Shown: positions 20,950-64,000 of the stretch, in pieces
Numbering within the stretch: position 1 is the stretch's first letter
Layout: every line of letters begins with the position of its first letter
NCBI GenBank assembly: GCA_902585605.1
Contig: CACIED010000001.1
Span: 469,573 to 533,572 of the forward strand
Reading direction: 5' to 3'
DNA length: 64,000 bases
DNA from: an uncultured Alphaproteobacteria bacterium
GTDB lineage: Bacteria; Pseudomonadota; Alphaproteobacteria; HIMB59; GCA-002718135
Made by a program: the position numbers and the translations under genes
The notes under the pieces: model-generated
What the model was told of the DNA's origin: nothing
Database searches by the model: none
Seen by the model: the letters and a program-made list of their open reading frames with translations, nothing else

Positions 20950-21001
20950 TTTTTTTTTAATTTTTTTCACTTTTCTTCTTGCTAAAAATACTTAAAGGGT
21001 G

Positions 21002-21096
21002 TTGATTAAGTAAATTAATTTGGTGATAGAATTTTACGACTTTAGATTTTTTGCGTAAAATTTTTTTAAGCTATAAAATCATCTTGTTGGGGGAAA
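21002..21096 (+). promoter_or_regulatory. candidate dnaA promoter (extended -10) and Shine-Dalgarno
   Basis: TTGATT (21002-21007) with a long 19-nt spacer, then TGaTAGAAT (TAGAAT at 21027-21032). GGGGGA at 21089-21094 lies just upstream of the ATG at 21097. Confidence 0.25.
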
Positions 21097-35349: not shown

Positions 35350-38091
35350 ATGAGCAAATTACAAAAATTAATACTTGTTGATGGTTCAGCTTATATATTT
35401 AGAGCTTACTATGGTTTACCTCCTATGAACAGATCAGATGGTACACCTATTAATGCAGTTTTTGGATTTACCAATATGCTTGTTAAACTTATAGAAGATT
35501 ATAGCAACGATAGAATGATAATAATTTTTGATGCCGCTAGGGAAAACTTTAGAAATAAAATTTATTCAGAATATAAAGCTAATAGAGGTGAAGCACCAGA
35601 CGATTTAATTCCACAATTTCCATTAATAAGAGATTGTGTAAAAAGCTTTAATATACCACAGCTAGAAATAGAAGGATATGAAGCAGATGATTTAATTGCA
35701 ACGTATGTTAATCTGGCAAAAAAAGATGATATTGAGACTATTATAGTATCCTCTGACAAAGATTTAATGCAGCTTGTGAGTAAAAAGGTGACAATGCTTG
35801 ATCCAATGAAAAACAAAAAAATTGAAATTAAAGATGTTGAGGAAAAATTTGGAGTCAAACCCGATAAAGTCATTTTTATTCAAGCTCTAACAGGTGATAA
35901 AGTAGATAACATCCCAGGTGCTCCAGGTATAGGCCCTAAGACAGCATCTCAATTAATAAATGAATATAATGATATTGATGGATTACTAAAAAATGTTGAT
36001 AAAATTAAACAAGAAAAAAGAAGAAACGTTTTAAGAGAGGCAGAAAAGGATATAAGAATAAGCTTAGAGCTAGTAACGCTAAAAAATGATGTCAAGATAC
36101 CTAAGAGCATTGATAAAATAAGAACTTATAATGAATTAAAAAATGAAAATAATAATATCTTTGATTTTCTTAAAGAGCAGGGCTTTAGATCAACATCTGA
36201 AAGATTAAAATCTAATTCTTTTATATCTGGTGATAATGATAACATCGTTCAAAAAAAACAAATACAGCCAAAGTATCAATTAATTAATTCAAAGAATAAT
36301 TTTGAAAAAGTTTTAAAAGAAATTGAAAAAAATGGCATTTGCGCCATTGATACTGAGACAAACTCACTTAATATAGAAAAAGCTAAATTAGTTGGTATAT
36401 CAATTTGTTGCAGTGAAAGTACTTCTTATTATATTCCTATAAACCATACTACTTTAGATGGTTCTAAAAAAATTGATAATCAGTTAGAGGAAAAATATGT
36501 AATTAATCATATTAAAAAAATATGTGAAAATGAATCGATCTTAAAAATTGGGCAAAACATAAAATATGATATTAGAATCTTAAATAAGTATGGAGTAATT
36601 TTTAATTCAATTGCAGACACTATGTTGCTTTCCTATTCAATTGATAATGGAATTTTTAAACACAATTTAGATGATCTATCATTTAATCATTTAAATCATA
36701 CAACAATTAAATATAAGGAAGTCGTTGGAACAGGGAAAAATGAAATCACTTTTGATAAAGTAACCATTGATAAGGCAATTAATTATGCTGCAGAAGATTC
36801 TCTATTAACATTCAGGCTTTTTCATCATCTCTATCCTCGTTCAGTAAAAGAAAAGACTAATTTTGTTTATCGAAACATCGATTTACCTCTTATAGAGGTA
36901 TTATCTTCAATCGAAGCAAATGGCATTGAGGTAAATAAAGTGTTTTTAACAAATCTAAGTTATGAATTTGAAAATGAAAGTAAAAAACTTGAAAAGAATA
37001 TTTACAAACTTTCAAAGAAAGAGTTCAATATTGGCTCACCAAAGCAATTAGGAGAGATATTATTTATTAATCTTAAAATACCTGGTGGAAAAAAAACAAA
37101 ATCAGGCACTTATTCTACTGATTCTTCAACTTTAAATAATTTAGCTTCAGAGGGATTTGAAATTGCTAAACTTGTTCTTGATTGGAGAGAGTTAACAAAG
37201 CTTAAATCAACATATACAGATGCTTTATTTAGATTAACAGATGGTAAAAGTAGAGTTCATACATCATTTGGTTTAGCTAATACACTAACTGGACGATTAA
37301 GCTCTACAGATCCTAATCTTCAAAATATTCCAATTAGAACTGAAAATGGCAAAAAAATAAGAACAGCATTTATTAGTGGAAAAGGAAAAAAACTAGTTAG
37401 TTTCGATTATTCACAAATAGAACTAAGATTGGCTGCAGAAATTTCAGGAGATAAAAATTTTATCAAAGCATTTAACAATAATGAAGACATTCATGCAGCA
37501 ACGGCTAAGGAAATATTTAGTTTGAAAGATAGTCAAATTAATAATGATTACAGAAGAAAAGCAAAAGCAATTAATTTTGGGATTCTATATGGCATTAGTC
37601 CATATGGTTTGGCAAAGCAACTTGATATTTCAAACACAGAAGCAAAAGATTACATAAATGAGTATTTTAATAAATATCCAAATATAAAAAAATACATGGA
37701 CCATCAAATCGATTTTGCAAAAACAAACCAATATGTTGAAACAATTTTTAAAAGAAAAATTAATATAAAAGGGATTACAGATAAGAATTTTGCTGTAAGA
37801 GGTTTCGCTGAAAGACAAGCTATTAATGCGCCAATACAAGGTAGTGCGGCTGATATTATTAAGTTAGCAATGATTGAAATTCATAAAGAAATAAAACTTA
37901 AAAACATTGAGGCAGAAATGCTTTTACAAGTACACGACGAACTGATTTTCGAAGTTGAAAGTAAAAAATATGATAATTTAGTAAGTAATGTAAAAACAAT
38001 TATGGAGTCAGTGCATTTAAAGTACAAAAATTTTTCAGTTCCATTAACCGTTGATTATGGAGCTGGTGATAATTGGGGTCAGGCACATTAA
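35350..38091 (+). CDS. polA: DNA polymerase I
   Basis: 5'-3' exonuclease N-domain, 3'-5' exonuclease (AIDTETNSL), and polymerase motifs A (DYSQIELR), B (RRKAKAINFGILYG) and C (QVHDEL). 913 aa. Confidence 0.97.
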   Translation: MSKLQKLILVDGSAYIFRAYYGLPPMNRSDGTPINAVFGFTNMLVKLIEDYSNDRMIIIFDAARENFRNKIYSEYKANRGEAPDDLIPQFPLIRDCVKSFNIPQLEIEGYEADDLIATYVNLAKKDDIETIIVSSDKDLMQLVSKKVTMLDPMKNKKIEIKDVEEKFGVKPDKVIFIQALTGDKVDNIPGAPGIGPKTASQLINEYNDIDGLLKNVDKIKQEKRRNVLREAEKDIRISLELVTLKNDVKIPKSIDKIRTYNELKNENNNIFDFLKEQGFRSTSERLKSNSFISGDNDNIVQKKQIQPKYQLINSKNNFEKVLKEIEKNGICAIDTETNSLNIEKAKLVGISICCSESTSYYIPINHTTLDGSKKIDNQLEEKYVINHIKKICENESILKIGQNIKYDIRILNKYGVIFNSIADTMLLSYSIDNGIFKHNLDDLSFNHLNHTTIKYKEVVGTGKNEITFDKVTIDKAINYAAEDSLLTFRLFHHLYPRSVKEKTNFVYRNIDLPLIEVLSSIEANGIEVNKVFLTNLSYEFENESKKLEKNIYKLSKKEFNIGSPKQLGEILFINLKIPGGKKTKSGTYSTDSSTLNNLASEGFEIAKLVLDWRELTKLKSTYTDALFRLTDGKSRVHTSFGLANTLTGRLSSTDPNLQNIPIRTENGKKIRTAFISGKGKKLVSFDYSQIELRLAAEISGDKNFIKAFNNNEDIHAATAKEIFSLKDSQINNDYRRKAKAINFGILYGISPYGLAKQLDISNTEAKDYINEYFNKYPNIKKYMDHQIDFAKTNQYVETIFKRKINIKGITDKNFAVRGFAERQAINAPIQGSAADIIKLAMIEIHKEIKLKNIEAEMLLQVHDELIFEVESKKYDNLVSNVKTIMESVHLKYKNFSVPLTVDYGAGDNWGQAH

Positions 38092-38100
38092 ATCTAATTT

Positions 38101-38229
38101 ATGCAAGTTAAAAAAAAAATTAAGAAAAAAAATCCCTATGCCCAAGATCTAAAATTACCTAAGTATAAACAAAGAATTGTTATGAGTAAAAGAACGTATA
38201 CGAGGAAGGGAAACAAAAAGTTTATTTAG
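38101..38229 (+). CDS. unlisted small ORF, 42 aa, 16 Lys/Arg; ArfA-like (alternative ribosome-rescue factor) motif
   Basis: Own translation: MQVKKKIKKKNPYAQDLKLPKYKQRIVMSKRTYTRKGNKKFI*. It fills the polA-grx spacer. The N-x8-P-x-[FY]-[KR]-Q-R-[IV] ... [ST]-Y-x-R-K-G pattern resembles the ArfA core. No search was run. Confidence 0.35.
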   Translation: MQVKKKIKKKNPYAQDLKLPKYKQRIVMSKRTYTRKGNKKFI

Positions 38230-38465
38230 AATTCTTCATCAAAGGTATTCACTTCAAACCATTTTTCAAGCTCATGATATCCTCCAATTTTTTCACCATT
38301 TAAAATTATTTGAGGAAAGGTTTTTGCGTTCGGAAACTTTTCAAAAAAATCTTCTCTCGTATAATCTGTATCAAGCATATAAATCTTTGGATTATATTTA
38401 GCTAACCTTAGTTTAGCTCTGTCACAGTATCCACAATTAGTTTTAGAATATATCTCTGCTTCCAT
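38226..38465 (-). CDS. glutaredoxin (RNR-associated, Grx1/NrdH-like role)
   Basis: CGYC active site and TFPQIILNGEKIGGY (Grx GSH-site-like). Last gene of the nrdA-nrdB-grx operon. The ATG at 38465-38463 shares one nt with the nrdB TGA (TGATG). The ORF track begins one codon earlier at TTG 38468. Confidence 0.8.
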   Translation of the reverse strand: MEAEIYSKTNCGYCDRAKLRLAKYNPKIYMLDTDYTREDFFEKFPNAKTFPQIILNGEKIGGYHELEKWFEVNTFDEEF

Positions 38466-39454
38466 CAAAATGCTTCATCAAAACTTAAAGCTCTATCTGT
38501 AGGTCTTTGATACTCAGATACTCTTTTTTCAAAAAAGTTTGTTACGTTTTGAACATCCAATGCTCTCATAAAATCAAAAGGATTCTCTGTTTTAAAGACT
38601 CTGTCAAATTCAAATAGATCAGCAATTCTGTCTGCAACAGCTTCGATATACTGACACATTAAATCAGCATTCATACCAATTAAATCTACTGGTAGTGCAT
38701 CTTTCACAAATTCTTTTTCAAAAGCTACTGCTTCTCTAACAATTTCTTCAAATTGTGATTGAGGTACGTCTGAAGGAATTAGAGATAAATCACTAATATC
38801 AGCATCAGTTAATGTTTTATTATTAAACTTATCTCTTAAAGTTCTAAACATTAATGATGAGAAGCTAAAGTGCATTCCTTCATCTCTTGCAATCCAATCA
38901 TTAGATAAGGCTAAACCAGGCAGTAAACCTCTTTTTCTAAAATAATATATTGCACAGAAAGAGCCTGCAAAAAATAAACCTTCAACTAATCCAAATCCTA
39001 TTAGTCTTGTTAATAAATTTTGACTACCATTGAGCCATTTTGATACCCATTTTGCTTTATGGTTAATACATGGTACGTTTTGTATTGCATCAAAAAGCAT
39101 ATCCTTTTCTTTTGTATCTTTTACATAAGCCTCAATTTGAAGACCATACATCTCTGCATGAATTGATTCATTCAACATTTGCATGGATATGAAACATCTC
39201 GCTTCAGGAATTAAAATTTCTTTGTAGAACCTACTAGCTAGGTTTTCGTTAATCATTGCTTCGGAGTTAGCAAAATATGCAAGTACGTGCTTAATAAAAT
39301 GCTTTTCACCATCATTTAAAGTTTCAAGATCTCTTAAATCATCCTGCAATGATACTTCTTCGGTTGTCCAAAAGGCTTGTATATGTTGTTTGTATCTATC
39401 CCAAATTTCTTGGTTTTTTATTGGAAATATTGATTTAACGCCTTTTGATATCAT
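38465..39454 (-). CDS. nrdB: class Ia ribonucleotide reductase beta subunit (eukaryote-like R2)
   Basis: Di-iron ligand segments (NESIHAEMY, EGLFFAGSF, RDEGMHFSF). C-terminal tail ...LSFDEAF is like eukaryotic ...DADF tails. Confidence 0.95.
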   Translation of the reverse strand: MISKGVKSIFPIKNQEIWDRYKQHIQAFWTTEEVSLQDDLRDLETLNDGEKHFIKHVLAYFANSEAMINENLASRFYKEILIPEARCFISMQMLNESIHAEMYGLQIEAYVKDTKEKDMLFDAIQNVPCINHKAKWVSKWLNGSQNLLTRLIGFGLVEGLFFAGSFCAIYYFRKRGLLPGLALSNDWIARDEGMHFSFSSLMFRTLRDKFNNKTLTDADISDLSLIPSDVPQSQFEEIVREAVAFEKEFVKDALPVDLIGMNADLMCQYIEAVADRIADLFEFDRVFKTENPFDFMRALDVQNVTNFFEKRVSEYQRPTDRALSFDEAF

Positions 39455-42222: not shown

Positions 42223-42260
42223 TTAAATTCTATCCATTTTTAAAAAATTATTGTCGAAAA

Positions 42261-42276
42261 ACACAATATGTAGTGC
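42261..42276. promoter_or_regulatory. candidate NrdR box upstream of nrdA
   Basis: ACACAATATGTAGTGC resembles the palindromic NrdR-box consensus acaCwAtATaTwGtgt as I recall it. It lies about 40-55 nt upstream of the nrdA ATG. Confidence 0.4.
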
Positions 42277-42288
42277 CGCCGAAAAGGG

Positions 42289-42316
42289 ACAATACAACAT
42301 TTGCTCAATATCGCAA
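42289..42316 (-). promoter_or_regulatory. candidate sigma70-type promoter of nrdA-nrdB-grx
   Basis: On the minus strand: TTGCGA (42316-42311), 16-nt spacer, TATTGT (42294-42289). The NrdR-like box lies just downstream of it. Confidence 0.3.
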
Positions 42317-42510
42317 TAAGAACAAAACATGAACATAAATATTTTTTTTATCATGTCAATCCCTTACTTAATTTATATTTTCAGAAGGCAAACAAGTTAT
42401 TGAAATATTTACATTTACTTATCAACTTAAGTCACAATTTGTTAAATTTACTAACTGAGTCATTTTTTCTTTGAACTTAAATCTGCCATAAATTATTAAT
42501 AAAAGGTACT

Positions 42511-63657: not shown

Positions 63658-63775
63658 GGGTTTCTTTATTTTTAGTACATAATTGGTACTATTATTATAA
63701 AATTATTGTTTCCTTTCTTATCTTGAATGTGTATTTGGTTTGATCTAGATAAAATAGTAAACAAATGATAACTAA

Positions 63776-64000
63776 ATGCTTAAATTTACAAAAATAAACA
63801 AGGAAAATCCTAATAAAATATCTGCTAAAGAAAGAGTAAAATCATTTGATGAAATTTACTCTAAATATGCCTCACTAAAGGCAGAAGAACAAGCCTCCAG
63901 ATGTTCTCAATGTGGTGTTCCTTTCTGCCAAGTTCATTGTCCTTTGCACAATAATATTCCAGATTGGTTAAAACTAACTGCTGAGGATAGAATGCAGGAG
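63776..64000 (+). CDS. gltD: 5' part of glutamate synthase small subunit (GltD), runs off the right edge
   Basis: Own translation from ATG 63776: MLKFTKINKENPNKISAKERVKSFDEIYSKYASLKAEEQASRCSQCGVPFCQVHCPLHNNIPDWLKLTAEDRMQE. The Cys cluster C-x2-C-x3-C-x3-C and NxIPxW are typical of the GltD N-terminus. Not in the ORF track because it is truncated. Confidence 0.85.
   Translation, partial: MLKFTKINKENPNKISAKERVKSFDEIYSKYASLKAEEQASRCSQCGVPFCQVHCPLHNNIPDWLKLTAEDRMQE

Follow-up and report, generated by a model that had tools for sequence, protein, structure and literature searches.

A small conserved gene between polA and grx of a SAR11-like alphaproteobacterium and its sequence relationship to the ribosome-rescue factor ArfA

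The small ORF at the polA–grx locus

The window, meaning the whole 64,000-nt stretch of DNA that was analysed, contains a spacer of 134 nt (38092–38225) between polA and grx. A crude ORF map, with 97.7% of the window covered, gave four gaps of at least 100 nt (20950–21096, 38092–38225, 42223–42510, and 63658–64000 at the edge), in line with the count in the earlier note. The spacer holds a small ORF that starts after 9 nt of intervening sequence behind the polA stop (Table 1). Its limits and its 42 codons were the same in the ORF listing and in the sequence, and its translation is MQVKKKIKKKNPYAQDLKLPKYKQRIVMSKRTYTRKGNKKFI (42 aa). The recount of basic residues gave 13 Lys and 3 Arg (16 of 42, 38%), the A10 run over codons 4–6 was seen directly in the letters, and the four nucleotides shared with the convergent grx stop were found as previously described. 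The ORF had been called unlisted. It is indeed absent from the first-stage track, but only through a length cut-off; homologous 42-aa ORFs have been called elsewhere, as unnamed or hypothetical proteins, by the NCBI, JGI, ENA, and Tara gene callers.

Table 1. Coordinates of the small ORF, its segments, and its neighbours in the window
Feature	Position	Strand	Description
polA	35350..38091	+	DNA polymerase I, 913 aa, upstream gene
arfA-like ORF	38101..38229	+	ATG start, 42 codons, TAG 38227–38229; "deletion-type" miniature ArfA homologue
A10 run	38110..38119	+	K4–K6 codons, Lys-rich N-terminus
N11–L19 (NPYAQDLKL)	38131..38157	+	Aligns with E. coli ArfA N14–D22
P20–V27 (PKYKQRIV)	38158..38181	+	Aligns with E. 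coli ArfA P23–E30
K30–I42 (KRTYTRKGNKKFI)	38188..38226	+	Basic C-terminal tail; aligns with E. coli ArfA K33–R48 minus G35-K36-G37
Stop overlap	38226..38229	.	ORF TAG (+) versus grx TAA (-), 4 nt
grx	38226..38468	-	Glutaredoxin-like, 80 aa, first convergent gene of the grx-nrdB-nrdA row

The claim that 42 open codons are unusual for such DNA was borne out. An ATG-initiated ORF of at least 42 codons on either strand arose in 1.3% of 20,000 composition-preserving shuffles of 38081–38240. This rate is unusual but not decisive alone, and it is conservation that decides.

No significant promoter-like site was detected between polA and the small ORF, and direct reading found no Shine-Dalgarno sequence before ATG 38101. 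A terminator-like site was likewise absent from 37500–38800, and there is no room for one on either strand because the ORF and grx stops overlap. The only inverted repeat at the ORF was a weak palindrome of 13 nt where the two stops lie, and the ORF RNA was less structured than its shuffles (fold z = +1.88). The search of the window for an RNase III-type hairpin, an Rfam family, or a tmRNA or tRNA found none. Because the polA stop lies 9 nt before the ATG, co-transcription and translational coupling with polA are likely; most likely, the small ORF shares a transcript with polA and its translation is coupled to the termination of polA translation. The grx transcript must run antisense into it.

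Conservation of the ORF and of its position

Homologues of the 42-codon ORF formed 59 protein clusters, nearly all of 42 aa. A scan of genome contigs gave at least 14 loci, and the order polA-ORF-grx-nrdB was kept in at least eight single-cell genomes. A metagenome scan was anchored on polA and so was independent of the small ORF. Of its 12 loci whose polA C-terminus showed 70% identity or more, 11 carried the ORF immediately behind the polA stop, as did one locus with 66% polA identity. At loci with 64–68% polA identity, polA abuts grx without a spacer; the spacer exists only with the ORF.

Among 18 orthologous loci, the ORF started 0–12 nt past the polA stop. Its stop abutted or overlapped that of grx in 18 of 18 orthologues, and the in-frame stop was conserved in all 18 intact ones. 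One further orthologue (L007) carried a 1-nt deletion, through which the frame runs on to 99 codons. With this frameshifted copy included, the stops were TAG in 12 and TAA in 7, which rules out a conserved, RF1-only TAG stop as a regulatory feature.

The frame and motif were preserved down to about 50% identity. The mean pS was 0.61 against a mean pN of 0.21, the median dN/dS was 0.25, and the variable sites at codon positions 1, 2, and 3 numbered 24, 29, and 41 of 43. Synonymous changes were spread along the whole ORF; extra synonymous constraint at the 3' end, considered as a sign of an RNA element, was not visible beyond the last two codons. A run of A9–A11 was kept in the ten closest orthologues, with AAA at 30 of 30 positions for codons 4–6, and was shorter or displaced in more distant ones. 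The frame conservation and synonymous bias that the earlier note had proposed to look for in related polA–grx spacers were therefore both found. Because synteny and frame are conserved and dN/dS is close to 0.25, sequence comparison identifies the 42-codon ORF as a real gene under purifying selection.

The ORF could also yield no functional protein, being either a chance spacer ORF or a coupled frame whose translation tunes polA or grx. Its very short length, the missing Shine-Dalgarno sequence, a start right behind the polA stop, the overlapped grx stop, and the 1.3% of shuffles giving such an ORF fit this explanation. Against it stand a dN/dS of about 0.25, the saturation of synonymous changes, and a frame and motif that persist to about 50% identity. 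In addition, the family occurs in unrelated contexts (after a DPRP gene, after a response regulator, in phages, and in an alphaproteobacterium of 50% GC), and lineages without the ORF have no spacer. We regard this explanation as close to refuted.

Relationship of the 42-aa peptide to ArfA

The Pfam ArfA profile (PF03889), which the earlier note had named as the first test, did not match the window ORF even at E ≤ 10, so that this test looks negative. In a scan of 60 sequences (the window ORF and P0001–P0059), the sole match was P0059 at 29.4 bits (gathering threshold 25.5 bits), and the controls passed with 89.5 bits for E. coli ArfA and 35 bits for the HIMB114-type P0062. The NCBIfam scan also gave no match, but it was uninformative since NCBIfam has no ArfA model and left E. 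coli ArfA unmatched too. The PDB search with the SAR11-only first-round profile gave nothing significant, the best match being 2xu0_A, erythrocyte membrane protein 1 (E 1.3). Because this was a chance match, the family was widened before the PDB search.

Three profiles were used: A2 of SAR11-type sequences; A3 of 50 Pfam-ArfA-positive mini-ArfAs of the KGKGS type (35–45 aa), with no SAR11-type sequence inside; and A6 of 114 of the 628 family clusters that the SAR11-type profile collected at the 50% identity level (E ≤ 1e-3). Against 1419 window ORFs, the A3 HMM matched only 38101–38229 (E 8.4e-8; next best 0.64). Alignment of A2 to A3 by hhalign gave 97.8% probability and E 1.2e-12, with one 3-residue gap. 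Among 177,635 distinct PDB sequences, every ribosomal protein included, A3 found E. coli ArfA chains only (E 2.7e-6), and A6 also found only E. coli ArfA (E 7.6e-6, over ArfA residues 5–56); 17 of the 114 A6 members pass Pfam ArfA. In hhalign, A2 aligned to the single E. coli ArfA sequence at E 9.4e-5 with the register unchanged.

P0059, with a SAR11 N-terminus and a KGKGS C-terminus, was rejected as a bridge between the two types. On its 558-nt contig, a polA end matching the window exactly stands together with pfkB, which neighbours the other arfA locus; the sequence may have arisen by chimeric assembly or by recombination. The homology profiles were rebuilt without it.

With Lys and Arg making up 38% of its residues, no match to Pfam ArfA, and 2xu0_A at E 1.3 as the best PDB match of the SAR11-only profile, the peptide might instead be a small basic binder of ribosomes or nucleic acid, similar to ArfA only through Lys/Arg-driven convergence. 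Composition-matched shuffles (2000) speak against this, since the best of them scored 9.3 bits and the real sequence 28.5, and across real sequences scored at 28.5–28.7 bits the shuffle maxima were 9–11 bits. Furthermore, ArfA alone was matched in the PDB set, and the conserved family positions, for the most part occupied by non-basic residues (N, A, L, P, Y, Q, I/V, Y, G), keep one fixed register. Convergence is strongly disfavoured and in our judgement very improbable. Since two independent routes agree, one through the KGKGS minis (E 8.4e-8; hhalign 97.8%) and one from the wider family to the PDB (E 7.6e-6), profile comparison establishes the 42-aa peptide as an ArfA homologue. The resemblance first noticed by eye holds up, and hhalign and HMMER returned the identical register, including the 3-residue gap.

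The KGKGS mini-ArfAs occur in Pelagibacterales and marine phages, with the 35-aa ORF of HIMB114 and gp30 of pelagiphage HTVC027P (PMC12753301) as examples; they are 35–45 aa long and end in a real stop. They share 40–51% identity with the window ORF and the common pattern N-P-x-A-x-[DE]-L-x3-K-Y-[KR]-x-R-[IV]-V. They are also found in SAR11-type genomes, where they too lie tail-to-tail with the next gene, but their loci follow a DPRP/photolyase-like gene or a response regulator, whereas the window ORF follows polA. They keep KPKKGKGS[FY]KRKK and pass Pfam ArfA (P0062, 35 bits), whereas the window ORF has RSKKxYTRKGNKK and fails. On another contig (L180), one copy of each type is fused into a single 70-aa ORF adjoining grx.

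E. coli ArfA (YhdL; Pfam PF03889; PDB 5MDV, 5U4I, 5H5U, 5MGP, and 7OJ0) shares with the peptide the pattern N-x8-P-x-[FY]-[RK]-Q-R-[VI], then K-[KR], then [ST]-Y-x-R-K-G, in the same register. The peptide covers roughly E. coli positions 4–48, about the part modelled in ribosome structures. Within N11–L19, residues N11, A14, and L17 show little or no variation in the family; the corresponding short helix of E. coli ArfA (residues 15–24) touches both the decoding centre and the region of the RF2 switch loop (PMC8012679). Y22 aligns with F25, and Q24-R25-I26-V27 with Q27-R28-V29-E30. In E. coli, F25 makes a hydrophobic contact to RF2, and the Q27–E30 beta-strand pairs with RF2 domains II/IV (PMC8012679). 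The block [KR]-Y-[KR]-x-R-[IV]-[IV] is the best conserved in the SAR11-type, the KGKGS-type, and the wider family, and at the sequence level the RF2-binding segment of ArfA is present.

The C-terminal tail carries 6 Lys/Arg in 13 residues, with Y33, R35, and K36 invariant in the family, and ranks with the RF2-binding positions as the best-conserved part of the peptide. In E. coli ArfA, the K33–R48 segment fills the empty mRNA entry channel, and a protein cut to 40 residues is inactive (PMC8012679). The tail of the peptide reaches the equivalent of residue 48, and by this alignment it is sufficiently long and positively charged for the channel. The K-G-K-G-S-[YF] linker is replaced by K30-R31-T32-Y33, with G-K-G deleted in every alignment. 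The A18 position has Gln15 rather than a small residue, and the invariant alanine of the family, A14, is off by one position and falls on E17; in E. coli, A18T abolishes RF2 activation (PMC8012679). N38-K39 stands in place of the KH motif (K44-H45), which many non-SAR11 family members have as R-K-x-K-H.

Overall, the peptide retains the RF2-contacting aromatic residue, the beta-strand, and the basic tail of E. coli ArfA. Its size is about that of active truncated ArfA: it has 42 aa, against 72 encoded by E. coli arfA, of which the active form comprises about 55. Unlike E. coli ArfA, it lacks G35-K36-G37 and the KH motif, it has neither the hydrophobic C-terminal extension nor the hairpin module, it does not reach the Pfam threshold, and its host is alphaproteobacterial. 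The tail-to-tail arrangement with a convergent neighbour resembles that of arfA and mscL in Enterobacteria (PMC10070815).

Proposed function and the wider family

The ORF is a chromosomal gene of a SAR11-like alphaproteobacterium for a stripped-down ArfA relative that probably recruits RF2 to ribosomes stalled on broken mRNAs. We infer ribosome binding, RF2 recruitment, and the mode of expression from the comparisons above. On a ribosome whose mRNA stops in the P site or close to it, the tail K30–K40 would enter the mRNA entry channel and sense that it is empty. The segment Y22-K23-Q24-R25-I26-V27 would add a beta-strand to RF2 domains II/IV and recruit RF2 without a stop codon, while N11–L19 at the decoding centre would help RF2 to open. 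The peptidyl-tRNA would then be hydrolysed by the GGQ loop of RF2.

Neither prfB nor ssrA was found within the window, which also has no GGQ-containing ORF, and RF2 is the presumed partner. Because 11 of 57 long window ORFs stop at TGA, which only RF2 reads, RF2 must be present. The cultured SAR11 strain Ca. Pelagibacter ubique HTCC1040 was scored smpB+ and ssrA+, but arfB-, arfA-, and rqcH- (PMC11633108), so no other back-up rescue is known in SAR11.

Unlike E. coli arfA, the window ORF has a conserved genuine stop and lacks an RNase III hairpin and an internal terminator. Because no hairpin or terminator was found and the stop codon is genuine and conserved, E. coli-style nonstop-mRNA synthesis is not evident. 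Any tmRNA-dependent control would act through the antisense overlap with grx-nrdBA transcripts and not through a cis hairpin.

Other rescue factors offer further comparisons. ArfB has its own GGQ catalytic domain, SmpB acts with tmRNA, ArfT works with RF1 or RF2, and BrfA is also made from nonstop mRNA. Unlike ArfB, a 42-aa peptide without GGQ must borrow a release factor. BrfA of Bacillus subtilis and ArfT of Francisella are small peptides whose basic C-terminus lies in the mRNA channel and which bring a class I release factor to nonstop ribosomes (PMC8012679, PMC6881298), and ArfB and the SmpB C-terminal tail likewise probe the empty mRNA entry channel with a basic tail (PMC8012679). No sequence relationship of BrfA or ArfT to the window peptide was detected.

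The wider family has the consensus [KR]RNPxA[KR]DLRTPKY[RK]xRVV[KR]SKKxY[ST]RK. The PHROGs v4 profile phrog_20887 matched residues 8–37 of the window ORF on profile positions 2–31 of 46 (E 3.9e-4, 21.3 bits) and all 114 relatives (best E 2e-13). DUF7230 (PF23876) matched neither the window ORF (E ≤ 10) nor the other SAR11 42-mers; it matched 66 of the 114 relatives (best E 3.9e-10) and cross-matched E. coli ArfA weakly (E 0.11). On these profile matches, the peptide family is the one catalogued as phrog_20887 and, apparently, as Pfam DUF7230, two entries of "unknown function". DUF7230 was not mentioned in the literature searched, and its link to ArfA is apparently unrecorded. A word-indexed search with a 50% GC alphaproteobacterial homologue (L017) gave one relative only, and tblastn of KGKGS-type queries against phages gave no match, probably from low-complexity masking. 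A match of Roseobacter phage CRP-13 to the family was spurious.

Most of the family appears to be phage-borne, and its role there could differ. The peptide may accordingly be an ArfA homologue that does not perform RF2-dependent rescue, its mRNA-channel tail being kept for another role: recruitment of RF1 or of both release factors as in ArfT, blocking or hibernation of vacant ribosomes, or manipulation of translation by a domesticated phage gene. The phrog_20887 match of all 114 members tested, the presence of the family on 80 IMG/VR contigs, and its annotation as "hypothetical protein" in cultured Sinorhizobium, Agrobacterium, and Rhizobium phages are in keeping with such a role. So are three changes to parts important in E. 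coli (PMC8012679): the loss of GKG, the Gln aligned with A18, and the absence of the KH motif. Against it, the RF2-contacting aromatic residue with the Q-R-[VI] strand is the best-conserved block, and the gene lies amid core genes, outside any prophage, with conserved synteny and under purifying selection, in a group with no other known back-up rescue factor. We consider another role unlikely, and RF2 recruitment remains the preferred reading.

Reviews and two genome surveys place ArfA in Gamma- and some Betaproteobacteria only, and BrfA in the B. subtilis group (PMC8012679, PMC10070815, PMC11633108); the earlier note had given ArfA the same, mainly beta/gammaproteobacterial, distribution. Among 2,376 Alphaproteobacteria, ArfA was found in none (PMC11633108), and a second survey also reports it absent from this class (PMC10070815). 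Against these surveys, a miniature alphaproteobacterial ArfA is new, as had been anticipated. The novelty is partial, because Pfam-positive mini-ArfAs already stand in Pelagibacteraceae records and HIMB114, some of them named ArfA by JGI, and PMC12753301 described an ArfA from a pelagiphage in 2025.

A broader reading is offered tentatively, as a possibility that we would not call probable. DUF7230/phrog_20887 might be a very large unrecognised ArfA branch (628 clusters) of stop-terminated 33–60 aa peptides that bring a release factor to ribosomes on nonstop mRNAs. In SAR11, scored in published surveys as having trans-translation only, one of these peptides would be the sole back-up rescue factor, its supply tied to tmRNA capacity by the arfA/grx antisense pairing, where an RNase III-cut duplex would give a nonstop arfA mRNA and replace the cis hairpin. 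In hundreds of phage lineages (pelagiphages, large rhizobial phages, and many uncultured marine phages), the same peptide may maintain ribosome recycling when mRNAs are cut short by host or phage nucleases.

These results also indicate that curated models and nucleotide-level searches overlook very short, fast-evolving genes of AT-rich streamlined genomes. If RF2 recruitment is true, the minimal functional ArfA would be smaller than thought, with a dispensable KGKGS linker, and nonstop-mRNA autoregulation would not be obligatory to the ArfA design. DUF7230 and the phage-widespread phrog_20887 would gain a testable function. Furthermore, the most abundant marine heterotrophs would possess a hidden second rescue pathway.

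The small ORF in the polA–grx spacer

The earlier note proposed a 42-codon ORF in the spacer between polA and grx as a candidate miniature ArfA, the E. coli peptide that brings RF2 to ribosomes on nonstop mRNA. Its start, stop and length were re-found in the ORF listing, as were its A10 run and its overlap with the convergent grx stop. Its basic composition was confirmed (13 Lys and 3 Arg). The window has a G+C content of 27.4%, and 97.7% of it is covered by ORFs of at least 60 aa in a crude ORF map. The claimed rarity of the spacer held, since gaps of at least 100 nt occurred only at three internal spacers and at the right edge. An open frame of this length had also been called unusual; an ATG ORF so long was found in only 1.3% of local-sequence shuffles. 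The largest spacer matched no Rfam family at the gathering threshold.

Features of the window and of homologous loci
Feature	Position	Strand	Description
polA	35350–38091	+	Stop 9 nt 5' of the small ORF
Small ORF	ATG 38101 to TAG 38227–38229	+	42 codons, MQVKKKIKKKNPYAQDLKLPKYKQRIVMSKRTYTRKGNKKFI
A10 run	38110–38119	+	Inside the small ORF, codons K4–K6
grx	38226–38468	−	Convergent; 4-nt overlap with the small ORF holds both stop codons
nrdB, nrdA		−	Next after grx in the ORF listing
Internal spacer	20950–21096		147 nt left uncovered by the crude ORF map
polA–grx spacer	38092–38225		
Largest spacer	42223–42510		288 nt; upstream of the minus-strand nrdA
Tail-to-tail contexts of arfA-like loci	L002 5001–5108; L014 and L015; L180; window 38226–38229		Neighbours DUF805, pfkB, grx
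L001	1–558		ENA contig with protein P0059
L007	3001–3300		Single-cell genome AG-893-I03
L017	2983–3123		MAG CAJQQJ010000167.1
L027	1860–2300		Locus with polA identity of 77%
L180	1206–1418		JGI Ga0068472_10242113
L181	604–744		Sinorhizobium phage phiM12, SmphiM12_363, AGR47995.1

A protein search with the window ORF returned 59 clusters at 69–98% identity, nearly all exactly 42 aa. Their sources were marine metagenomes and NCBI genomes, and the entries were unnamed or called 'hypothetical'. The order polA-ORF-grx-nrdB was present in at least eight single-cell or metagenome-assembled 'uncultured Alphaproteobacteria bacterium' genomes. A metagenome scan was anchored on the last 119 polA residues, so the ORF itself was not selected for. 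The small ORF was present in 11 of the 12 loci with polA identity of at least 70%, plus one locus at 66%; in these it starts 0–12 nt past the polA stop, and its 3' end falls on the stop of grx. At L027, the small ORF and grx are replaced by a different ORF on the same strand, right after the polA stop, with a signal-peptide-like N-terminus (MKISLLTFIICIFFFNISFAQ...). In seven loci from SAR11-like lineages with polA C-terminal identity of 64–68% (L030–L035 and L037), polA and grx are convergent and abut around 1857–1860 with essentially zero spacer, and no small ORF lies between them at that locus. Therefore, the spacer exists only as the ORF.

Frame conservation in related spacers, named as a check in the earlier note, was observed across 18 orthologues: protein identity fell to about 50%, and the frame, a length of 40–43 aa and the pattern N-P-x-A-x-[DE]-L-x3-K-Y-[KR]-Q-R-x-V-x2-K-K-x-Y-x-R-K were kept. 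Substitution was biased to synonymous sites, the companion check (mean pS 0.61 vs. pN 0.21), with a median dN/dS of 0.25 among less saturated orthologue pairs. Variable sites at codon positions 1, 2 and 3 numbered 24, 29 and 41 of 43. The 42-codon ORF is almost certainly a real gene.

In the L007 copy, loss of 1 nt close to the 3' end removes the stop, and the frame then stays open for 99 codons, running antisense through grx, with an A-run sequencing error or a natural frameshift as the possible cause. All ten closest orthologues use AAA for K4–K6, which makes A9–A11 runs, against synonymous sites elsewhere that are about half saturated; the run is shorter or displaced in more distant orthologues. 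A-runs of such length favour ribosome sliding or transcriptional slippage.

Relationship to ArfA

The Pfam ArfA profile PF03889, also suggested as a check, did not match the window ORF or the other SAR11-type 42-mers, and NCBIfam contains no ArfA model, so no match was possible there. A search seeded with P0059 returned 1731 clusters of 35–45 aa with ...KYKxRIVKPKKGKGSFKRKK (KGKGS-type). Precomputed PF03889 annotation was present on all KGKGS-type clusters among the 120 clusters listed, and some were already named ArfA by JGI. The A3 profile was made from 50 KGKGS-type proteins and zero SAR11-type sequences. Among all 1419 stop-to-stop window ORFs, its sole match was the small ORF (E = 8.4e-8; runner-up 0.64), which scored 28.7 bits against shuffles of at most 11.3. 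In hhalign, the SAR11-type 42-mers aligned with A3 over 35 columns at 97.8% probability (E = 1.2e-12); the one gap, of 3 residues, faces G-K-G. In the PDB, A3 matched E. coli ArfA chains only (E = 2.7e-6).

When 1.84 billion representatives were scanned in full by HMMER, a SAR11-type profile gave 628 clusters (E ≤ 1e-3). Nearly all were of the deletion type, without G-K-G ([KR]RNPxA[KR]DLRTPKY[RK]xRVV[KR]SKKxY[ST]RK...). Their composition varies from Lys-rich to Arg-rich, and in many the C-terminus is R-K-x-K-H (compare Y-M-R-K-G-K-H in E. coli). Against the PDB, a profile of 114 of these clusters matched E. coli ArfA alone (E = 7.6e-6), spanning ArfA residues 5–56 with the insertion again at GKG. 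E. coli ArfA(1–55) scored 28.5 bits against the family profile, and 2000 shuffles scored at most 9.3. The Pfam ArfA model matched 17/114 members, and DUF7230 (PF23876), a family with no assigned function, matched 66/114.

The by-eye alignment of the earlier note returned in the same register in the profile alignments, including the 3-residue gap at GKG. Window residues N11, P20, Y22, Q24-R25-I26, K30-R31, T32-Y33 and R35-K36-G37 correspond to N14, P23, F25, Q27-R28-V29, K33-K34, S38-Y39 and R41-K42-G43 of E. coli ArfA, respectively. Judged from these alignments, the window ORF is very probably an ArfA homologue.

Relatives in bacteria and phages

The KGKGS type was found at other loci in Pelagibacteraceae records and in Alpha proteobacterium HIMB114. 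L017, from a marine alphaproteobacterium of 50% G+C, carries a deletion-type ORF, MARKPVKRNSVARALFDPRYRKRVIKSKKTYTRKGRVQNRPFAFAA, among ordinary-looking chromosomal ORFs. A 91% identical protein, annotated hypothetical, is present in an NCBI 'Alphaproteobacteria bacterium' record. Because the L017 copy lies in a mid-GC alphaproteobacterium, the deletion type also occurs outside SAR11 and phages. L180 encodes a single 70-aa ORF (P0060) with KGKGS-type and deletion-type units in tandem, flanked on one side by a response regulator (Trans_reg_C) and on the other by a glutaredoxin gene (grx) in convergent orientation. Therefore, both paralogue types can share one genome, adjacent to grx. In L001, a polA 3' end that matches the window exactly is followed by 27 SAR11-type N-terminal codons, then by a C-terminus of the KGKGS type and by pfkB, the gene that neighbours arfA at the other Pelagibacteraceae locus (L014/L015). 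Either the assembly is chimeric at the KYKQRIV-coding stretch common to both types, or the contig is a true recombinant.

The ArfA-like family is abundant in viruses, with members on 80 IMG/VR contigs of 28–58% G+C. The window ORF matched phrog_20887, a family of unknown function (E = 3.9e-4), as did 114/114 relatives. Cultured phages with a member were Sinorhizobium phiM12, M7, M19, N3 and M9, Agrobacterium Atu_ph07 and several Rhizobium phages. Phage members were annotated 'hypothetical protein' or, like the Atu_ph07 copy, unannotated. The phiM12 'hypothetical protein' SmphiM12_363 (46 aa, MKQRNPMARELSQSIYRKKVVKSKKTYNRKKIAGKRHPGDNFLKAA) is a clear deletion-type ArfA-like peptide. In 2025, a pelagiphage ArfA was noted, namely gp30 of HTVC027P (PMC12753301).

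Predicted function, control and novelty

In E. coli ArfA, RF2 is recruited through beta-sheet augmentation by F25 and the Q27–E30 strand, a short helix of residues 15–24 sits at the decoding centre, and the basic C-terminus occupies the empty mRNA channel; ArfA cut to 40 residues is inactive, A18T blocks RF2 activation, and a KH motif is common to ArfA and BrfA (PMC8012679). As in E. coli ArfA, the SAR11 peptide has the aromatic residue and the strand, and its tail extends to the equivalent of residue 48. In contrast to E. coli ArfA, GKG is deleted, Gln stands where A18 aligns, and the KH motif and the hydrophobic C-terminal extension are absent. TGA, which is read by RF2 only, is the stop of 11/57 long window ORFs; therefore, an RF2 partner should exist. 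prfB was not present in the 64-kb window. The SAR11 peptide is probably a release-factor-dependent rescue factor.

E. coli arfA is translated from RNase III-truncated nonstop mRNA. At the window locus, a cis element for such nonstop synthesis was not found, nor was a terminator-like site or a match to Rfam. The RNA of 38092–38300 folded worse than 199/200 shuffles, and the in-frame stop was conserved in the orthologues (TAG 12, TAA 7, counting the frameshifted L007). Because the start lies 0–12 nt past the polA stop with no Shine-Dalgarno before it, the arrangement points to co-transcription with polA and termination-reinitiation coupling. Since there is no room for a grx terminator, grx transcripts must run antisense through the small ORF. 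In all Pelagibacterales arfA-like loci examined, which cover four distinct contexts, the gene and a convergent neighbour are tail-to-tail, and the gap between them is −4 to +6 nt; the neighbour of the fused L180 gene is again grx. In Enterobacteria, arfA and mscL are likewise convergent, and their overlap is acted on by RNase III (PMC10070815). Given this precedent and the convergent neighbours, a trans-antisense route is possible, in which an antisense convergent transcript would act in trans to yield nonstop arfA mRNA. Nonstop or antisense control of the small ORF is conceivable but rather unlikely.

ArfA has been described as restricted to Beta- and Gammaproteobacteria (PMC8012679; PMC10070815). 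A survey found it in 0/2,376 Alphaproteobacteria and scored Ca. P. ubique HTCC1040 as smpB+, ssrA+, arfB−, arfA− and rqcH− (PMC11633108). The literature searched held no mention of DUF7230. The SAR11-like label of the window rests on base composition, genome compaction and nearest relatives that are marine single-cell genomes. The claim that ArfA in such an alphaproteobacterium would be new holds with respect to the published surveys and only in part with respect to databases, which already include Pfam-positive Pelagibacterales mini-ArfAs. We rate the window ORF as an ArfA-lineage gene that is divergent and miniaturised, ends in a real stop codon and is overlooked by curated models, in a clade believed to have no ArfA.
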